Part shown: piece after piece, positions 2,287-37,343 of the stretch
Layout of the letters: every line of letters starts with the position of its first letter
Numbering within the stretch: position 1 is the first letter of the stretch
Position numbers and translations under genes: made by a program
IMG/VR virus record: IMGVR_UViG_2778261542_000002
Location: 1 to 57,194 of that record
DNA: 57,194 nucleotides
Direction: 5' to 3' (one strand)
Source: a virus
Lineage: Duplodnaviria; Heunggongvirae; Uroviricota; Caudoviricetes
The notes under the pieces: model-generated
What the model was told of the DNA's origin: nothing
The model's input: only the letters and a program-made list of their open reading frames with translations
Databases searched by the model: none

Positions 2287-5200
2287 ATGAACAGGACCAG
2301 TCCCCATTATTGTCGCCGCTCAGTACTTTCCTTATTGATATCTGCCTTGATATATGCCCCGCCCGGTATGGCGGCCTTCACTCCTGATGTTATTGGTGTG
2401 GTAAACGATGAGACTGTAGATGGCAACCAAAAAGTGGATGAACGAGGTACAACAAATAACACTCATATTATCAACCATGGCCAGCAGAATGTTCATGGCG
2501 GGGTATCTAATGGAAGTCTTATTGAATCTGGTGGATATCAAGATATAGGAAGTCATAACAATTTTGTGGGGCAGGCTAATAATACAACCATTAACGGTGG
2601 CAGACAGTCAATTCATGACGGGGGTATTTCCACAGGTACGACAATCGAGAGTGGCAATCAGGACGTTTATAAAGGGGGTATCAGCAATGGAACGACAATT
2701 AAGGGCGGTGCTTCACGCGTAGAGGGAGGGAGTGCGAATGGAATACTCATTGATGGTGGTAGCCAGATAGTAAAAGTTCAAGGGCATGCTGATGGTACAA
2801 CGATAAATAAGTCTGGCTCTCAGGACGTAGTACAAGGAAGTCTGGCAACGAACACAACCATAAATGGTGGTCGACAGTATGTTGAACAGAGCACAGTAGA
2901 AACAACAACCATTAAAAATGGCGGTGAGCAAAGAGTATATGAGAGCCGTGCGCTGGACACGACGATTGAAGGCGGAACTCAGTCTCTGAATAGTAAGTCA
3001 ACGGCAAAAATTACGCAGATCTATTCTGGTGGCACGCAAATTGTTGATAACACCAGCACCTCGGATGTTATTGAAGTTTATTCCGGTGGCGTGCTTGATG
3101 TTAGTGGTGGTACGGCAACAAATGTTACCCAGCACGATGGTGCAATTTTAAAAACAAACACTAACGGTACGACGGTGAGCGGTACGAATAGTGAAGGTGC
3201 ATTCTCCATCCACAATAAAGTGGAAGACAATGTGTTGCTGGAAAATGGAGGCCATTTAGAAGTATCTCATTCCGCAAACAAGACGATTATTAAAGATAAA
3301 GGAACAATGTCAGTTTTAACGAATGCTAAAGCTGATGCGACCCGAATAGATAATGGCGGGGTTATGGATGTTGCAGGAAACGCGACAAATACCATAATTA
3401 ATGGTGGCACACAGAATCTTAATAATTATGGCATAGCCACAGGCACCAATATCAACAGCGGAACGCAAAATATCAAAAGCGGTGGGAAAGCTGACACAAC
3501 AATTATATCCTCCGGGAGCCAGCAAGTTGTTGAGAAAGATGGTACGGCAATTGGCAGCAATATTAGCGCCGGAGGCTCGCTGATTGTCTATACCGGCGGT
3601 ATTGCACATGGGGTTAACCAGGAGACGGGCAGTGCTTTAGTTGCCAACACGGGCGCAGGGACTGATATTGAAGGATACAACAAGCTCTCTCACTTCACTA
3701 TTACCGGAGGGGAGGCTAATTATGTTGTGCTGGAAAATACCGGCGAACTGACGGTAGTGGCTAAAACCTCGGCGAAAAATACTACCGTTGATGCTGGCGG
3801 TAAGCTGATTGTCCAGAAGGAGGCTAAAACAGATACCACCAGACTTAATAATGGTGGCGTTCTGGAGGTTCAGGACGGTGGTGAGGCTAAGCATGTTGAG
3901 CAACAATCCGGCGGCGCATTAATTGCTTCCACAACTTCCGGAACCCTTATCGAAGGAACCAACAGTTATGGTGATGCTTTCTACATCAGGAATTCAGAAG
4001 CTAAAAATGTAGTGCTGGAAAACGCTGGCTCATTAACAGTCGTCACTGGTTCCCGGGCAGTTGATACGATTATTAATGCCAACGGCAAAATGGATGTTTA
4101 TGGAAAAGATGTTGGCACTGTACTTAATAGTGCTGGCACCCAAACAATATATGCCAGTGCCACTTCTGATAAAGCAAATATCAAAGGTGGCAAGCAAACG
4201 GTATATGGTTTAGCCACTGAGGCAAATATTGAAAGTGGTGAACAAATTGTTGATGGTGGGTCAACTGACAAAACGCACATCAATGGCGGCACACAAACCG
4301 TTCAGAATTATGGTAAGGCGATCAATACCGATATCGTCTCTGGCCTACAACAAATTATGGCAAACGGGATAGCGGAAGGTTCCATTATTAATGGGTGTTC
4401 ACAGGTAGTTAATGAGGGCGGTCTGGCTGAAAACTCGGTGCTTAATGACGGCGGCACACTCGATGTGCGGGAGAAAGGCAGCGCAACGGGGATACAGCAG
4501 AGTAGCCAGGGCGCTTTGGTTGCAACCACCAGGGCGACGCGGGTCACAGGAACACGCGCGGATGGCGTCGCGTTCAGCATCGAGCAGGGTGCGGCGAACA
4601 ATATCCTGCTGGCAAATGGCGGCGTGTTAACCGTGGAGTCAGACACCTCTTCTGACAAAACACAGGTCAATACGGGCGGACGGGAGATCGTCAAAACAAA
4701 AGCCACTGCGACAGGCACGACGCTCACCGGCGGCGAACAAATCGTCGAGGGGGTGGCGAATGAGACAACGATTAACGACGGCGGAATACAAACAGTTTCA
4801 GCTAACGGAGAGGCAATAAAAACAAAGATCAATGAAGGCGGTACGCTGACAGTTAACGATAATGGCAAAGCGACAGATATCGTCCAGAACAGCGGTGCCG
4901 CTCTCCAGACGAGCACGGCTAACGGTATTGAAATCAGCGGTACTCACCAGTACGGCACTTTTTCCATTTCCGGCAATTTAGCGACCAATATGTTGCTGGA
5001 AAATGGCGGTAATTTATTGGTATTAGCAGGTACCGAAGCTCGCGACTCCACGGTTGGCAGCGGTGGAGCCGCCAACGGCAGTTATCGCAGCTACGGGCTG
5101 GGCGGTCACATTGAAACCGGGATGCGATTTACCGATGGTAACTGGAACCTGACGCCGTATGCATCGTTAACGGGGGTTCACCGCTGATAACCCTGAATAT

Positions 5201-30274: not shown

Positions 30275-30844
30275 TCATTCTTTATCTTTAATTATAAGTT
30301 TCGATTTTTCATCATGCATTTTGTCTATCATAAAATACATACCTAATGCCGTTGTGTATATAATGTTGCATATGGTACTTAAATAAATAAACAAAAGTAA
30401 TGATTTCACTAGTGGATATGATGAAAGGTGTAACTCCTTGATGCTTGCGCTGGTTAGTTGAAGTGCGCCTCCAACGAAATACAGCGCGATACTCATAAAC
30501 GCTAAATAACCAAATAGATAAGTGAGGAATTTACGCCTTGTAAGTTTTTTACCTTTTAATACCGGAGGTATGCCATGCATAACTTCATCCATACCATCCT
30601 TACTGAAGGTTGCAACTGCAGCCATAGATGCAATGTAAAAACCAGATAGTATTTGAAGTATCCCGTTTACTAAAGACACAAGACTATCCTTCCCGAGAAG
30701 TGAGATGGTTTTCGGTAAGTAATAGATGGATAAAGTAATAATTGCAGCAGTGAAAATGGGTAAAACCCAGTCAAAAAATCGCTTCTCAGGATGCTTTATG
30801 CGTAGGTAGTCTATAGGTGTAAAAACCTTAGATAAAACATACAT
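30275..30844 (-). CDS. small four-pass membrane protein (189 aa) - cargo gene 2 of the Q-lysis cassette
   Basis: AAGGAGG Shine-Dalgarno before ATG at 30844; four hydrophobic ~20-aa segments; AT-rich; opposite strand to the phage late operon. Confidence 0.6.
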   Translation of the reverse strand: MYVLSKVFTPIDYLRIKHPEKRFFDWVLPIFTAAIITLSIYYLPKTISLLGKDSLVSLVNGILQILSGFYIASMAAVATFSKDGMDEVMHGIPPVLKGKKLTRRKFLTYLFGYLAFMSIALYFVGGALQLTSASIKELHLSSYPLVKSLLLFIYLSTICNIIYTTALGMYFMIDKMHDEKSKLIIKDKE

Positions 30845-30876
30845 ATATGCCTCCTTTTGACAGGTTTTCCATGCCT

Positions 30877-31812
30877 TCACTTTAACATAAAGTTTTGCAT
30901 TTTTGCGAGAAGTTCTTCGTGAAATGCTGTTTGGCAAACGGCAATTGTTGATGCCAACACTGCTTTTTCACGTTGTGCCAATTGTGCTGTTGCGAGTTCC
31001 TGTAAGCTCATTTCTTTTCCGATGGAAACAAGATCTGATGAAACGCGTTTATTTTTGTCTTTATAAGAAATTCTTAACATTGTATACTTTCTACCACGAA
31101 GTTTGTCATATGCAGACTTAATCGCCTTAATTGCACCCTCTCCGCGACGTATTTTTGTTGATAGCTTTAGTGTTTCTTCTTCAACCATTACTGTGCCATC
31201 ATCATCTAAAGAGTTATCTTTAAAGCGACGAGTAGCAGTAAGTCCACATAAATAACCAGTGGATAGAGATTGCTCAAGTGTTGTTGCAGCCAAAAAATCA
31301 ATGTCGAAAATAGGTCTGCACTTAAGTTCTTTTTTCCCTCCTGAACGGATAAAGGAAAAATTATTTTCTCGCAGGAAATAAGTTAAAGCTTGGGCTAATA
31401 AACCTCTGGTAATGCCCGGAACTTCTTCTAAAATTGCCTCATAACAATCTTGGAATGATGAGTCGCTCGGTCTTTTTTTTATAAGCACATGAGCAGAGTA
31501 CCCCATACCTTCATCATTTTGCTTTTTCTCAATTCTGGTTTCACCAGTTTTTATGTTGGAAAAGGCGGGATCAGAAGCATCTTTATTTATATATTGAAAA
31601 AGCAATTTCAGGTAATTTTCATCGTCTTTTATGGATAGCAATCTTATGACAGAACGTCCTTTGTTTAATTCGTAAACAGCTTCTCCTTTGTTATAGCGAT
31701 TTTTTAAAACAGGAATACAGTTTACTAAAGGCATGTCAGGTGCGTCATTAGGATACTTCTTTAAAGTAACCTGGCATTTGATCATGAAACGTTCATTATC
31801 TCCCAAGAGCAT
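30877..31812 (-). CDS. hypothetical soluble protein (311 aa) - cargo gene 1 of the Q-lysis cassette
   Basis: AT-rich ORF immediately upstream of the membrane-protein gene on the same strand; no motif confidently recognised. Confidence 0.6.
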   Translation of the reverse strand: MLLGDNERFMIKCQVTLKKYPNDAPDMPLVNCIPVLKNRYNKGEAVYELNKGRSVIRLLSIKDDENYLKLLFQYINKDASDPAFSNIKTGETRIEKKQNDEGMGYSAHVLIKKRPSDSSFQDCYEAILEEVPGITRGLLAQALTYFLRENNFSFIRSGGKKELKCRPIFDIDFLAATTLEQSLSTGYLCGLTATRRFKDNSLDDDGTVMVEEETLKLSTKIRRGEGAIKAIKSAYDKLRGRKYTMLRISYKDKNKRVSSDLVSIGKEMSLQELATAQLAQREKAVLASTIAVCQTAFHEELLAKMQNFMLK

Positions 31813-32470: not shown

Positions 32471-32947
32471 ATGCAGGTACTAAATTCCCAGCGTAAAGCT
32501 TTCCTCGATATGGTGGCATGGTCAGAAGGAACGGATAACGGGCGACAACCGACACGTAACCACGGTTATGATGTTATTGTCGGTGGAGAACTCTTCACTG
32601 ATTACTCCGATCACCCTCGCAAGCTTGTCACGCTAAACCCGAAACTCAAATCAACAGCTGCAGGCCGTTATCAACTTCTTTCGCGCTGGTGGGATGCTTA
32701 CCGCAAGCAGTTAGGGCTGACAGACTTCTCTCCTAAAAGCCAGGATGCTGTTGCATTACAGCAGATTAAAGAGCGTGGCGCTTTACCGATGATTGATCGC
32801 GGCGATATTCGTCAGGCTATCGATCGTTGCAGCAATATCTGGGCGTCGTTACCTGGTGCAGGTTACGGTCAGTATGAACATAAAATCGGTGACCTGATTT
32901 CCCGGTTTAAAGAGGCTGGTGGGGTGGTAAATGAAGTTGAGCTATAA
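32471..32947 (+). CDS. R: lambda R-type endolysin (lytic transglycosylase)
   Basis: Near-colinear with lambda R as I recall it: NSQRKAFLDMVAWSEGTDNGRQ.TRNHGYDVIVGGELFTDYSDHPRKLVTLNPKLKSTAAGRYQLLSRWWDAYRKQLGL. Confidence 0.9.
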   Translation: MQVLNSQRKAFLDMVAWSEGTDNGRQPTRNHGYDVIVGGELFTDYSDHPRKLVTLNPKLKSTAAGRYQLLSRWWDAYRKQLGLTDFSPKSQDAVALQQIKERGALPMIDRGDIRQAIDRCSNIWASLPGAGYGQYEHKIGDLISRFKEAGGVVNEVEL

Positions 32948-33311
32948 GCTGGCTATCTCTGCATTCATCTTTACTGTCATCGGTTCTTTCATCTGGTCTG
33001 CCAACCACTACTACAGCAAATATCAGCACGAAAAGAAACGTGCTGATGAGGCTGTACAAAATGCTGAATCTGCAACAGCCATTACCCGTAACGTCCTGCA
33101 ATCACTGCAAATCGTCAATACAGTTATAGAGGTTAACCAGCATGCAAAACAGCAGATCGCACTGGAGTCACAGAGAACCCAGAAAGATATCAAAGTGGCT
33201 GTTGCGGATGATGATTGTGCTGCACGCCTTGTGCCTGCTGCCGCTGCTGAGCGGTTGCGGAAGTACGCGGACAGTTTACGTGAGCACTCCGGCTACAACA
33301 TTACCGACTAG
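32931..33311 (+). CDS. Rz: Rz-like i-spanin
   Basis: N-terminal TM segment then coiled-coil; follows R with overlap. Confidence 0.6.
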   Translation: MKLSYKLAISAFIFTVIGSFIWSANHYYSKYQHEKKRADEAVQNAESATAITRNVLQSLQIVNTVIEVNQHAKQQIALESQRTQKDIKVAVADDDCAARLVPAAAAERLRKYADSLREHSGYNITD

Positions 33312-33465
33312 TCTGACTTCTGAAACACCTGTACCGTTCATACCAAATCCTCTGACGTATGGTGCCAGCCTGGAGCTGAATGTGAGTCTGTTGTCTGCAC
33401 TGGCTAACTGCAATCGGGATAAAGCTGATATTCGTAAAATAGATGCAGAGAGAACTAACCATTAA
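33208..33465 (+). CDS. Rz1: Rz1-like o-spanin lipoprotein (overlapping reading frame)
   Basis: Starts inside Rz in another frame and extends beyond it; lipobox LLSGC; Pro-rich mature region. Confidence 0.5.
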   Translation: MMIVLHALCLLPLLSGCGSTRTVYVSTPATTLPTSLTSETPVPFIPNPLTYGASLELNVSLLSALANCNRDKADIRKIDAERTNH

Positions 33466-33486
33466 GCAATAAAATTGTCAAATTGA

Positions 33487-34113
33487 TCAGTTGTCAAATG
33501 AATATACGTTAAAGGTATATGTCGACATAATTTCACCAAGTACCTCAATACATATACTTTTTTTATGAAAATTACTGGGAAATGAACTTAGCTCTTCAAG
33601 GTATTGCACATAAGTGCTGATATCACTTGCATCACGTTCAAGGAATTTCACTTGGCCAAAAGAAGGAGTATTAATCCTGGTTCTTTGCTGGATTATATGG
33701 ATAAAATGTGTAGTTGGTGAAACTATTACTCTTGAAATATCGGAAATGATGTCTTCTTGAACTTGCCGATAAAGTAAATCCTTTGGGTAATGGTGTTTTA
33801 TCTCGATGGTTGCAACATTGCCATTATGTTCAGACGTTAATATCGACTGGTTATAAAGTGATATGTCAACAGCGCCGATACCGAGTTTTGGATGCTCACT
33901 TAAAGCAGTTAGTGTGCTGATTTGATTGAGTATAACAACTAACTCATCACGTATTTGTGTTTCATGTTTGCGATTGTAGAAGTAGCCATTCAGTTCATTT
34001 AACTTTTTATGCATCCTATCGTGACTAATTGCTTCGATCAGTAAATCCTGAATCATACTTTTCTCTAGGTAATCCGAACGGTTGTAAGTGACAGTATTGT
34101 GCTGGCATGTCAT
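33487..34113 (-). CDS. hypothetical protein (208 aa) - cargo gene 2 of the lysis-terminase cassette
   Basis: AT-rich ORF on the strand opposite to the late operon; no motif recognised. Confidence 0.55.
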   Translation of the reverse strand: MTCQHNTVTYNRSDYLEKSMIQDLLIEAISHDRMHKKLNELNGYFYNRKHETQIRDELVVILNQISTLTALSEHPKLGIGAVDISLYNQSILTSEHNGNVATIEIKHHYPKDLLYRQVQEDIISDISRVIVSPTTHFIHIIQQRTRINTPSFGQVKFLERDASDISTYVQYLEELSSFPSNFHKKSICIEVLGEIMSTYTFNVYSFDN

Positions 34114-34156
34114 TAATATGTAAAGGTATTGTGAATACCAGAAAGATAACGAAGTA

Positions 34157-34510
34157 TCATCGATAGAAAAACTTTACAGCCCACTCGTAAACAGCTTTGT
34201 AAATCGGTTCATGGTAAATACTATCGATACTATTCAGATGTGCGATCATCGCCTCCACAGTTGTAGTGGTTGTTTCTAATATTTCGATTATTGCAGGGCG
34301 GTCATCATCTTCATCGAAGTATTCGAACAGCAGTACAGGTTTACCATGCCATTCAGCATCTGAGACTCTAAGGTTACAACTACCGCTCAACTCAAAGTGA
34401 ATTTTGTAATTACCTTCTACAGAATGGCCTACGGGGAAAAAGTATAGGGTGTCATCTTTGTTCAAAAGCCATTCCCATTCATAACTATTCATTTGTGAAC
34501 TCCTGTTCAT
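34157..34510 (-). CDS. hypothetical protein (117 aa) - cargo gene 1 of the lysis-terminase cassette
   Basis: AT-rich ORF, acidic, upstream of the 208-aa gene on the same strand. Confidence 0.55.
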   Translation of the reverse strand: MNRSSQMNSYEWEWLLNKDDTLYFFPVGHSVEGNYKIHFELSGSCNLRVSDAEWHGKPVLLFEYFDEDDDRPAIIEILETTTTTVEAMIAHLNSIDSIYHEPIYKAVYEWAVKFFYR

Positions 34511-34642
34511 TGAGTTTCAACAACTATCAACTACATCCAGCGAAGCATAAAAGATCGTTTATGGCAAAACCGGAATGGAGTGCGATTCGATTCTGAGAAG
34601 GATGCCACGTATCGTACGCGAACCATCCAAGAGGATTATGCA

Positions 34643-34993
34643 ATGCCCCTACGAACCCCAAAAGCCTGCCGTGTTCGCGGCTGCCGCCATACCACTACTG
34701 ACCCGTCAGGCTACTGCGAAAGCCACAAAAGCGAAGGCTGGAAGCAATACAAGCCAGGCCAGTCCCGACACCAGCGCGGTTATGGTTCGAAATGGGATGT
34801 TATCCGTGAACGTGTGCTCAAGCGTGACAAAGGCCTGTGCCAGTTGTGCCTGCGTGCTGGTGTGGTGCGCGAGGCGAAAACCGTTGACCACATCATCCCT
34901 AAAGCGCATGGCGGCACTGATGCCGACTGTAATCTGCAGAGTCTGTGCTGGCCGTGTCATAAGGCGAAGACGGCCCGTGAACGGTTGAAGTGA
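34643..34993 (+). CDS. HNH endonuclease (terminase-associated)
   Basis: C..C ... DHIIPKAHGG ... NLQSLCWPCH..K HNH/zinc motif; GAGGA Shine-Dalgarno; upstream of terminase small subunit. Confidence 0.7.
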   Translation: MPLRTPKACRVRGCRHTTTDPSGYCESHKSEGWKQYKPGQSRHQRGYGSKWDVIRERVLKRDKGLCQLCLRAGVVREAKTVDHIIPKAHGGTDADCNLQSLCWPCHKAKTARERLK

Positions 34994-35118
34994 TAATAAT
35001 TCTCAACTGCCTGAGGGGAGGGGCGGGTCAAATCCCTGCGGCCTGACGTCTTCCGGACTGCCCGCCCCATCGTTTTTTTATACCCGCGAAAAATGAAATT
35101 TAACCAGGAGTGCCGCAT

Positions 35119-35613
35119 ATGGCTGGAACGGCGGGGCGTTCCGGGCGTCGCCCCAAGCCAACGGCGCGCAAGGCGCTGGCCGGAAACCCCGGCAAGCGAG
35201 CCCTGAATAAAGATGAACCTGTTTTTACGCCCATCAAAGGTGTTGAGCCACCGGAGTGGTTCGCTGAAGAAGATCTCCCTCTCGCCACGATCATGTGGCA
35301 ACTGACAACCAAAGAACTCTGCGGTCAGGGCCTGCTGTGCGTGACTGACCTCGCGGTGCTTGAGCGGTGGTGCGTGGCCTACGAGTTCTGGCGACGTGCC
35401 GTGAAAAATATTGCCAGACAGGGCAACACCATCACCGGTGCAATGGGCGGTATGGTCAAAAATCCGGAGCTGACCGCCAAAAAAGAACAGGAGTCCGAGA
35501 TGAGCAGTACGGGGGCAATGCTCGGACTCGACCCCAGCAGCCGCCAGCGTCTGATTGGCCTGGCGGGGAAGAAGAAAGCCACTAACCCGTTTCTGAAAAT
35601 TATCGAATCATGA
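35119..35613 (+). CDS. terminase small subunit (P27-family-like)
   Basis: N-terminus [14 protein letters not shown]; AGGAG Shine-Dalgarno; overlaps large-subunit start. Confidence 0.7.
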
Positions 35614-37343
35614 GCCGGAAATCTTACCCCAACGTAAATGCTGCAAATCAGTATGCCCGGGATGTCGTGCGCGGAAAGATTGTTGCCTGCCAGTTTGTGA
35701 TTCAGGCCTGCCAGCGCCATCTTGATGACCTGATGGCGGAAAAAAGTAAGTCGTTTCGTTACCGCTTCGACAAGGACCTGGCTGAACGGGCCGCCAAATT
35801 TATTCAGCTGTTGCCGCACACCAAGGGTGAGTGGGCATTTAAACGGATGCCCATCACGCTGGAGCCGTGGCAGCTATTTGTGATCTGCTGTGCGTTTGGC
35901 TGGGTCAATAAAGGCACCCGGTTGCGCCGCTTCCGGGAGGTGTATACCGAAATTCCCCGTAAGAACGGCAAATCGGCAATCTCTGCCGGTGTTGCCCTGT
36001 ATTGTTTTGCCTGTGATAACGAGTTCGGCGCGGAAGTGTATTCCGGTGCCACGACGGAGAAACAGGCGTGGGAAGTCTTTCGTCCGGCACGACTGATGTG
36101 TAAACGCACACCCATGCTGACGGAAGCGTTCGGGATTGAGGTTAACGCCTCAAACATGAACCGTCCGGAGGATGGTGCGCGGTTTGAACCGCTGATCGGT
36201 AACCCCGGTGATGGTTCATCACCCCACTGTGCCGTGGTGGATGAATATCACGAGCACGCCACAGATGCGCTTTACACCACGATGCTTACCGGGATGGGGG
36301 CGCGACGCCAGCCACTGATGTGGGCCATTACCACCGCCGGGTACAACATTGAGGGGCCGTGCTACGACAAACGGCGGGAAGTCATCGAGATGCTCAACGG
36401 CTCGGTACCAAACGATGAACTGTTCGGGATCATCTATACCGTTGATGAAGGTGACGACTGGACCGACCCGCAGGTGCTGGAAAAAGCCAATCCAAATATT
36501 GGCGTGTCGGTTTATCGCGAATTTTTGTTAAGTCAGCAGCAGCGTGCGAAAAATAACGCCCGTCTGGCAAACGTTTTTAAAACAAAACACCTCAATATCT
36601 GGGTGTCGGCGCGTTCGGCGTATTTCAACCTGGTGAGCTGGCAGAGCTGCGAGGATAAATCACTGACCCTTGAGCAGTTCGAGGGGCAGCCGTGCATTCT
36701 GGCCTTTGACCTGGCGCGTAAGCTGGATATGAACAGCATGGCGCGACTTTATACCCGCGAGATTGACGGTAAAACGCATTACTACAGTGTGGCCCCGCGT
36801 TTCTGGGTACCGTATGACACGGTGTACAGCGTCGAGAAAAATGAAGATCGCCGGACAGCCGAACGCTTTCAGAAATGGGTGGAAATGGGCGTCCTGACCG
36901 TTACCGATGGTGCAGAGGTGGATTATCGCTACATCCTCGAGGAGGCCAAAGCGGCGAACAAAATCAGCCCGGTCAGCGAGTCACCCATCGACCCCTTCGG
37001 GGCGACCGGGTTGTCACATGACCTTGCTGATGAAGACCTGAACCCCGTCACCATCATTCAGAACTACACCAACATGTCCGACCCGATGAAAGAGCTGGAA
37101 GCGGCAATTGAATCGGGGCGCTTTCATCATGATGGCAATCCCATCATGACCTGGTGTATCGGCAACGTGGTCGGCAAAACCATTCCGGGTAACGATGATG
37201 TGGTGAAGCCCGTCAAAGAGCAGGCGGAAAACAAAATCGATGGTGCAGTTGCGCTGATTATGGCGGTTGGCAGAGCCATGCTGTACGAGAAAGAAGACAC
37301 GCTGTCTGACCACATTGAGTCCTATGGGATCCGCTCGCTTTAA
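35610..37343 (+). CDS. terminase large subunit
   Basis: 577 aa; P-loop-like PRKNGKS; position between small terminase and portal. Confidence 0.9.

Follow-up and report, generated by a model that had tools for sequence, protein, structure and literature searches.

The stretch of DNA considered here, hereafter the window, comprises 57,194 nucleotides (positions 1 to 57,194 of the IMG/VR virus record IMGVR_UViG_2778261542_000002; Caudoviricetes) and carries, between the spanin genes Rz/Rz1 and the HNH endonuclease-terminase block, an AT-rich cassette of two genes facing against the late operon. An earlier reading made from the letters alone (the sequence-only reading) had described these as two adjacent minus-strand open reading frames (ORFs; 33487..34113 and 34157..34510), and both the ORF list and RefSeq annotation bear this description out. 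The annotation stems from the Escherichia coli chromosome NZ_CP128596.1, which shows 99.8% identity in the queried stretch of 1.4 kb that surrounds the cassette, with genes in the order lambda-family holin, endolysin, DUF2570 (Rz), LysC (Rz1), two minus-strand hypotheticals, HNH, P27-family terS, TerL, portal, HK97 protease and capsid; its wider annotation identifies the prophage as SfII/e14-like, located at tRNA-Thr and having a contractile tail. The lower GC content noted in the same reading is likewise evident, being 0.34-0.40 over positions 33350-34550 as compared with 0.45-0.50 in the lysis genes on the left and 0.54-0.59 in the HNH/terminase genes on the right.

The lengths first assigned to the two genes, 208 and 117 amino acids (aa), hold for the ORFs and not for the proteins. 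Homologues, PHROG profiles and RefSeq agree on starts at M20 and M7, giving products of 189 and 111 aa, respectively (the two are referred to below by these lengths), and the M7 start of the 111-aa gene is preceded at 8 nt by AGGAG. Both are real genes rather than chance ORFs, because orthologues with 50-77% identity exist in other genera and non-synonymous divergence (dN) is 0.13-0.50 against saturated synonymous divergence (dS), with dN/dS of 0.15-0.17 where computable. The PHROGs matches of both proteins are to families of unknown function only.

The supposed absence of any recognisable motif does not hold for the larger protein; the smaller one has no assignable fold. Alignment of 21 close homologues of the 189-aa protein revealed the invariant stretches GAVDLS...IELKHHYP...QQR and FYNRKHETQIRDE. 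An exhaustive search with the family profile over 1.84 billion representatives (cut-off E<=0.001) yielded only 48 relatives; close relatives (at least 50% identity) are all from Enterobacterales, and the distant ones come from Bacteroidota and metagenomes. In an alignment of 36 relatives, extending down to about 20% identity, exactly five columns are invariant (K30, E32, D64, E85 and K87), and these include the residue set of PD-(D/E)xK nucleases. Structure prediction, proposed as a check in the sequence-only reading, gave a confident restriction-endonuclease core with AlphaFold2 (predicted local distance difference test score 85; predicted template modelling score 0.85). In this model, E32 lies on the helix formed by residues 29-46, D64 stands directly before the strand 65-68, and E85 and K87 fall in the strand 80-89, which is followed by a helix (97-107) and a further strand (117-127). 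The 189-aa protein has the alpha-beta-beta-beta-alpha-beta core of the PD-(D/E)xK superfamily, and its D...(D/E)-x-K residues lie on beta-2/beta-3 together with an acidic residue of the preceding helix. Catalysis is thus predicted to involve E32 in the first helix of the core, D64 where beta-2 begins and E85-x-K87 of beta-3.

Searches against characterised families gave only sub-threshold matches, several of them within the same superfamily. Profile searches of PDB sequences from two alignments (A1 and A2) gave no match, and a third (A3) gave EcoRV only, at E 0.15, with D64/E85/K87 aligned on the EcoRV PD...D-I-K stretch, which we take to be the catalytic D74/D90/K92 of that enzyme. The 189-aa protein itself has no match in Pfam, NCBIfam or PADLOC. 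Distant members of the family give sub-threshold matches to HSDR_N (two members, best 1.4e-4), PDDEXK_4 (0.013), PDDEXK_9 (0.022), DpnII-MboI (0.046, one member) and Tox-REase-7, and one distant member (P0058) matches the Shedu SduA profile at E 1e-5 over residues 22-90, that is, over the catalytic core only. HSDR_N and SduA are the strongest among these weak matches, which include unrelated families too. Taken together, the assignment to the PD-(D/E)xK nucleases by fold and active site can be made with good confidence, and the 189-aa protein constitutes a new, unnamed family of that superfamily, nearest to the EcoRV/SwaI branch. As judged from its conserved residues and the predicted structure, it is probably a minimal and catalytically active nuclease. 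It appears to have its fold and active site in common with the EcoRV/SwaI-type (beta-class) Type IIP enzymes, but its sequence similarity to them is below significance (E 0.15), and both SwaI (226 aa) and EcoRV (245 aa) exceed its 189 aa in length. Type II restriction-modification further entails a methyltransferase next to the endonuclease, whereas none is present in the cassette, none is annotated in the related prophage of NZ_CP128596.1, and none accompanies the homologue at the ten homologous prophage loci.

The interval in which the two genes lie is a cargo (moron) hot spot, with variable content between conserved flanks. Variants were found by searching E. coli genomes with the joined flanks, and three examples were read: one is empty (L026; 26 bp between Rz1 and HNH), the second holds a plus-strand GrlR-family gene, and the third holds an unrelated plus-strand gene for a 168-aa hypothetical protein. 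These related prophages uphold the proposal of a second moron site, and the empty one supplies the comparison with an insert-free relative that the sequence-only reading had recommended. In the alignment to it, homology returns some 20 bp before the ATG of the HNH gene, and this point marks the right edge of the cargo; the edges are approximate, since the 3' end of Rz1 diverges too. Of the signs of atypical composition and autonomous transcription expected for a moron, the drop in GC and the opposite strand were observed; promoter-like matches were not above chance, and no terminator was found. Only about 75-79 of 5426 complete E. coli genomes carry the cassette. The cassette resembles lambdoid morons such as lambda bor in its relative position, opposite strand, low GC and presence/absence polymorphism, bor being situated downstream of Rz in lambda; in place of a lipoprotein, however, the slot here holds a predicted cytoplasmic nuclease and an acidic soluble protein. 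The cargo segment is dispensable, horizontally acquired, carried on the opposite strand and under purifying selection.

Homologues of both genes occupy the lysis-terminase slot also in prophages whose lysis modules, like their terminase modules, are unrelated. Therefore, the slot admits cargo generally and is not a sequence-specific target, which argues against the view that the 189-aa gene is a selfish free-standing homing endonuclease copying itself into the lysis-terminase junction during co-infection. Such a view would explain why a small nuclease gene stands by itself at an exact intergenic position, with presence/absence polymorphism among similar prophages, and PD-(D/E)xK homing endonucleases do exist. 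Nevertheless, the equivalent slots are flanked by unrelated genes (P27 terS, Terminase_2 or GpA-type terminase) and thus offer no conserved target sequence, the opposite strand and AT-rich composition do not fit, distant relatives are chromosomal and lie in defence-island-like contexts, and no flanking repeats were found. The idea was rejected on account of the unrelated flanks across host prophages, and homing is to be considered highly improbable.

Both genes are known only from prophages. Neither occurs in 50,697 sequenced phage genomes, at the DNA level or by tblastn of the proteins, and a plasmid collection returned one partial E. coli fragment only. A literature search yielded no paper for the RefSeq accessions, and one on prophage defence hot spots yielded nothing on the slot or the family.

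The positions of the cassette, its genes and its flanks are collected in Table 1.

Table 1. Features of the cargo cassette and its flanks, in window coordinates.
Feature	Position	Strand	Basis or remark
AT-rich cargo segment filling the Rz1-HNH slot, about 1.15 kb	33466..34620 (approximate)		GC profile and empty-slot comparison
Coding sequence of the 189-aa predicted nuclease	33487..34056	minus	Conserved start M20 at 34056; mechanical ORF to 34113 (208 aa)
Predicted catalytic codons of the 189-aa gene	K30 33969-33967; E32 33963-33961; D64 33867-33865; E85 33804-33802; K87 33798-33796	minus	
Spacer between the 189-aa and 111-aa genes, 100 bp	34057..34156	minus	Holds a sigma-70-like site
Coding sequence of the 111-aa acidic protein	34157..34492	minus	Conserved start M7; mechanical ORF from 34510 (117 aa)
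Divergent intergenic region, 111-aa gene to HNH gene, 150 bp	34493..34642		Annotation transferred from homologous locus
Left flank: Rz (DUF2570) 32931..33311 and embedded Rz1/LysC ~33202..33465	32931..33465	plus	ORF list; RefSeq of homologous locus
Right flank: HNH endonuclease 34643..34993 and P27-family terS ~35119..35613	34643..35613	plus	ORF list; RefSeq
TerL	35610..37343		After terS

An Rfam search of positions 33000-35200 gave no match, and a repeat search found no flanking direct repeats and two short inverted repeats of chance-like appearance. One of the inverted repeats recorded is a 16-nt pair, 88% complementary (33489-33504 and 34486-34501), which lies close to the two ends of the cassette, within coding sequence, and is probably due to chance. 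With regard to other cargo, a GrlR-family (lipocalin-like regulator) gene recurs as an alternative in the lysis-terminase slot (L016-L018, 4416-4736, and L027, 1184-1504), in E. coli prophages as well as beside the homologue of the 111-aa gene in Escherichia sp. ESNIH1. Upstream in the window, the holin is separated from the Q-like antiterminator by a first opposite-strand, AT-rich cassette of two genes (30275-31812, minus strand; 220 and 311 aa). This cassette matches PDC-M53, a candidate defence system of PADLOC (B at E 2.7e-39, A at E 1e-17), and the Q-holin slot is a second cargo hot spot, since the 99.8%-matching prophage has different genes there.

The sequence-only reading had also offered an antitoxin/immunity-plus-effector pair, in which the 111-aa protein would be the antitoxin or immunity protein against a nuclease effector and the two genes would form an obligate module. 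The layout is that of type II toxin-antitoxin (TA) and effector-immunity pairs, with a small acidic gene upstream of a larger nuclease-fold gene on one strand. The distribution within E. coli is in agreement as well: among 5426 complete genomes, the 189-aa gene was found in 75-80 and the 111-aa gene in 79, nearly always together. However, all of these copies are at least 95% identical, and the linkage may be because of recent common descent. The only fetched locus at which tblastn recovered both genes is the near-identical one of E. coli; it recovered the 189-aa gene without the other at ten loci (in Enterobacter, Providencia, Yersinia, Citrobacter and Proteus) and the 111-aa gene without the other at eight, at the same prophage slot. 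The two families are thus joined only in the E. coli/Shigella lineage, and the obligate co-occurrence of known pairs fails.

The neighbourhoods of the solitary genes point in the same direction. In Enterobacter hormaechei prophages, the homologue of the 189-aa gene stands on the opposite strand in the interval from the lysis genes to a Terminase_2 terS, and the 75-aa gene that precedes it is unrelated; in Proteus the interval runs from Rz to an HNH/P27 terS block, and upstream of the homologue is an unrelated gene of 103 aa, signal-peptide-like in its product. The Providencia homologue, between lysis genes and a GpA-type terminase, and that of Yersinia frederiksenii, which is followed by an unrelated 206-aa ORF, have no same-strand gene upstream at all. 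Among the distant relatives (Bacteroidota and metagenomes), some small gene is often found just upstream, which could be read in favour of a pair, but these neighbours are mutually unrelated; among them are a membrane-anchored protein of basic character, a DUF6150 repeat protein and a tandem DNA repeat read as protein. The last of these is the 90-aa 'gene' at positions 4703-4975 of locus L033, which consists of MQRSEIKIVSSSSVRVIL translated 4-5 times over and is probably non-coding repeat DNA, not protein. No conserved partner of the 189-aa homologues emerged among upstream and downstream neighbours.

Tight operon coupling is lacking too. The genes are 100 bp apart with no translational coupling, and the spacer holds a weak sigma-70-like site (TTTACA-17-CACAAT, 34124..34096), no better than chance in a promoter scan, that could drive the 189-aa gene independently. 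Furthermore, neither protein matched a TA or immunity family in scans of Pfam, NCBIfam and PADLOC. Since each gene stands alone elsewhere, the neighbours are unrelated and a 100-bp gap separates the two, the antitoxin/immunity-effector reading is unsupported and may be regarded as quite improbable; the two genes are very probably independent of each other. A metagenomic protein from ENA (P0031, 119 aa) combines the C-terminal half of the 111-aa protein with the beginning of the long ORF of the nuclease gene, and is probably a frameshifted or deleted variant of the cassette or an assembly artefact.

The 111-aa protein is beta-rich and acidic. The acidity noted in the sequence-only reading is confirmed by a pI of 4.56 and a net charge of about -12 (20 D+E against 8 K+R), and an EYFDEDDDRP patch is present, with LLFEY-x-DEDDD invariant among the homologues. 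These homologues form only 14 clusters, all from Enterobacterales, and no significant match to the protein was obtained in Pfam, NCBIfam, PADLOC or a profile search of PDB sequences. In seven prophage loci (L012-L018), the homologue starts about 68 bp from a Terminase_2 terS, in divergent orientation, between terS and the lysis cassette; one further homologue lies in a Pectobacterium locus without called phage-family genes. In the seven loci (position 4001 in each), the spacing between the 111-aa gene and terS is kept even though the downstream genes differ, and such a fixed distance suggests a conserved divergent promoter region or a linkage to the pac/terS region.

These properties are relevant to an explanation in which the genes would benefit the phage during infection, the 111-aa product as a DNA-mimic-like anti-defence protein and the 189-aa protein as a nuclease acting on host or competitor DNA to degrade it or on phage DNA to process it, with a position at the end of the virion DNA next to cos favouring early entry. 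Some anti-restriction DNA mimics are strongly acidic, as is this protein with its DEDDD patch, and the divergent spacing that its homologues always keep from terS would also fit. In SfI-type phage records, which are linear, the HNH gene comes at the extreme end, and therefore the cassette would sit near the genome end. Weighing against it, the orientation against the late operon, patchy distribution, AT-richness and empty-slot relatives are those of dispensable cargo, the DNA mimic finds no support from fold or family, and pac-type prophages with P22-like terS have no fixed relation to a DNA end; the absence of both genes from the sequenced phage genomes counts further against a role in infection. 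Such a benefit to the infecting phage is therefore considered unlikely.

The account favoured here, and to be preferred with slightly more than even confidence, is that of a cargo slot with two independent, lysogen-expressed genes, of which the 189-aa gene is a candidate for exclusion or defence. The element that hosts the cassette is an E. coli prophage of the SfII/e14-like kind, with a contractile tail and an HK97-type head, whose slot has been filled by about 1.15 kb of foreign AT-rich DNA with two accessory genes transcribed against the late operon. Both genes would be expressed in the lysogen from promoters of their own, and the 189-aa protein would act as a single-gene exclusion or defence function, cutting incoming foreign DNA (possibly RNA). 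The host would be spared if it lacked the substrate (such as a phage-type modification of DNA, free ends or some particular structure) or if its own methylation gave protection. The options for sparing accordingly range from recognition of modified phage DNA (Type IV-like) and masking by Dam/Dcm to specificity for structures or ends as in Shedu, or tight regulation. For the anti-phage role taken on its own, our confidence falls somewhat short of even.

Support for defence is circumstantial and comes from gene neighbourhoods, the neighbouring Q-holin slot with its PDC-M53 match and the class of protein. Distant relatives adjoin Kiwa together with hsdM/hsdS, a HEPN AbiU2, a WYL regulator, and SLFN_AlbA_2 along with nucleases. 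In Tamlana haliotis (L020, 5001-8521; GCA_008806375.1), a 195-aa relative has hsdM-hsdS directly downstream of it and KwaA/KwaB just upstream, with no HsdR within the 10.6-kb locus. Two family members also match HSDR_N, the nuclease domain of HsdR, weakly; the adjacency may be a coincidence within a defence island or a hint at the origin of the family. Shedu SduA and the nuclease-fold proteins validated through DefensePredictor are likewise free-standing genes on mobile elements. Shedu typically carries extra sensor or N-terminal domains, whereas the 189-aa protein has none, and although one distant family member matches the SduA core, the protein itself has no PADLOC match. Free-standing PD-(D/E)xK proteins form the largest class among the 42 newly validated E. 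coli defence systems reported with DefensePredictor (PMC13092281).

One form of the defence account can be stated more narrowly, namely that the protein is a solitary Type II-like restriction enzyme whose site is masked by the Dam or Dcm methylation of the host, so that it would restrict incoming DNA of hosts or phages without that methylation. The EcoRV/SwaI-like fold with its catalytic alignment, the missing methyltransferase in the cassette and in the related annotated prophage, and the confinement of close relatives to Enterobacterales would all suit such an enzyme. Enterobacterales are Dam-positive as a group. A weak match of one distant member to the DpnII-MboI restriction endonuclease (E 0.046) might be added, but it is far below threshold. 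The support is purely circumstantial; moreover, relatives occur in Bacteroidota and metagenomes, where such logic need not hold, and coliphages from Dam+ hosts would mostly be protected equally, which limits the benefit. Masking by host methylation is thus deemed rather unlikely as the specific explanation.

Several results weigh against the broader account of a lysogen-expressed exclusion nuclease. Toxicity would be the expected outcome for an active DNA endonuclease with no means of protection. Of eight distant contexts, only about half showed defence genes nearby (raw count), and neither protein matches any model of PADLOC-DB 2.0 at E<=1. No motif of the nuclease family or of the 111-aa protein was found in the searched portions of the DefensePredictor supplementary tables (PMC13092281), several of these tables being covered in part. 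As to expression, the promoter scan of the region returned 2 sites where 4.7 are expected by chance, and no terminator was found there. As to the nuclease assignment, the EcoRV sequence match is not significant alone, and a Foldseek search of the model against BFVD gave nothing at E<=0.001. Lastly, a lineage-specific functional link between the two genes in E. coli is possible, because they almost always occur together there.

A more far-reaching proposal is that the 189-aa protein founds a family of minimal, partner-less EcoRV-like nucleases that confer single-gene prophage immunity with no methyltransferase, distinguish self from non-self by phage DNA modification, Dam/Dcm masking or DNA ends, and have spread through the lysis-terminase slot of unrelated enterobacterial prophages, with the 111-aa protein as independent and possibly DNA-mimic-like cargo. 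In this full form the proposal is tentative and, at present, doubtful.

The slot itself is an ordinary kind of feature; what is new is an uncharacterised member of a known enzyme superfamily and an orphan acidic protein. The Rz1-terminase junction is hereby documented as a cargo slot across phages and is useful for the mining of accessory and defence genes. The cassette also provides a caution, in that a small and a large gene lying side by side in a prophage need not form a system, and co-occurrence across genera is to be checked before a pair is called. Should the 189-aa protein prove to be an active exclusion enzyme, few stand-alone defence nucleases would be smaller, and it would offer a clean system for understanding how a host is spared by a restriction-fold enzyme that has neither a methyltransferase nor a partner.

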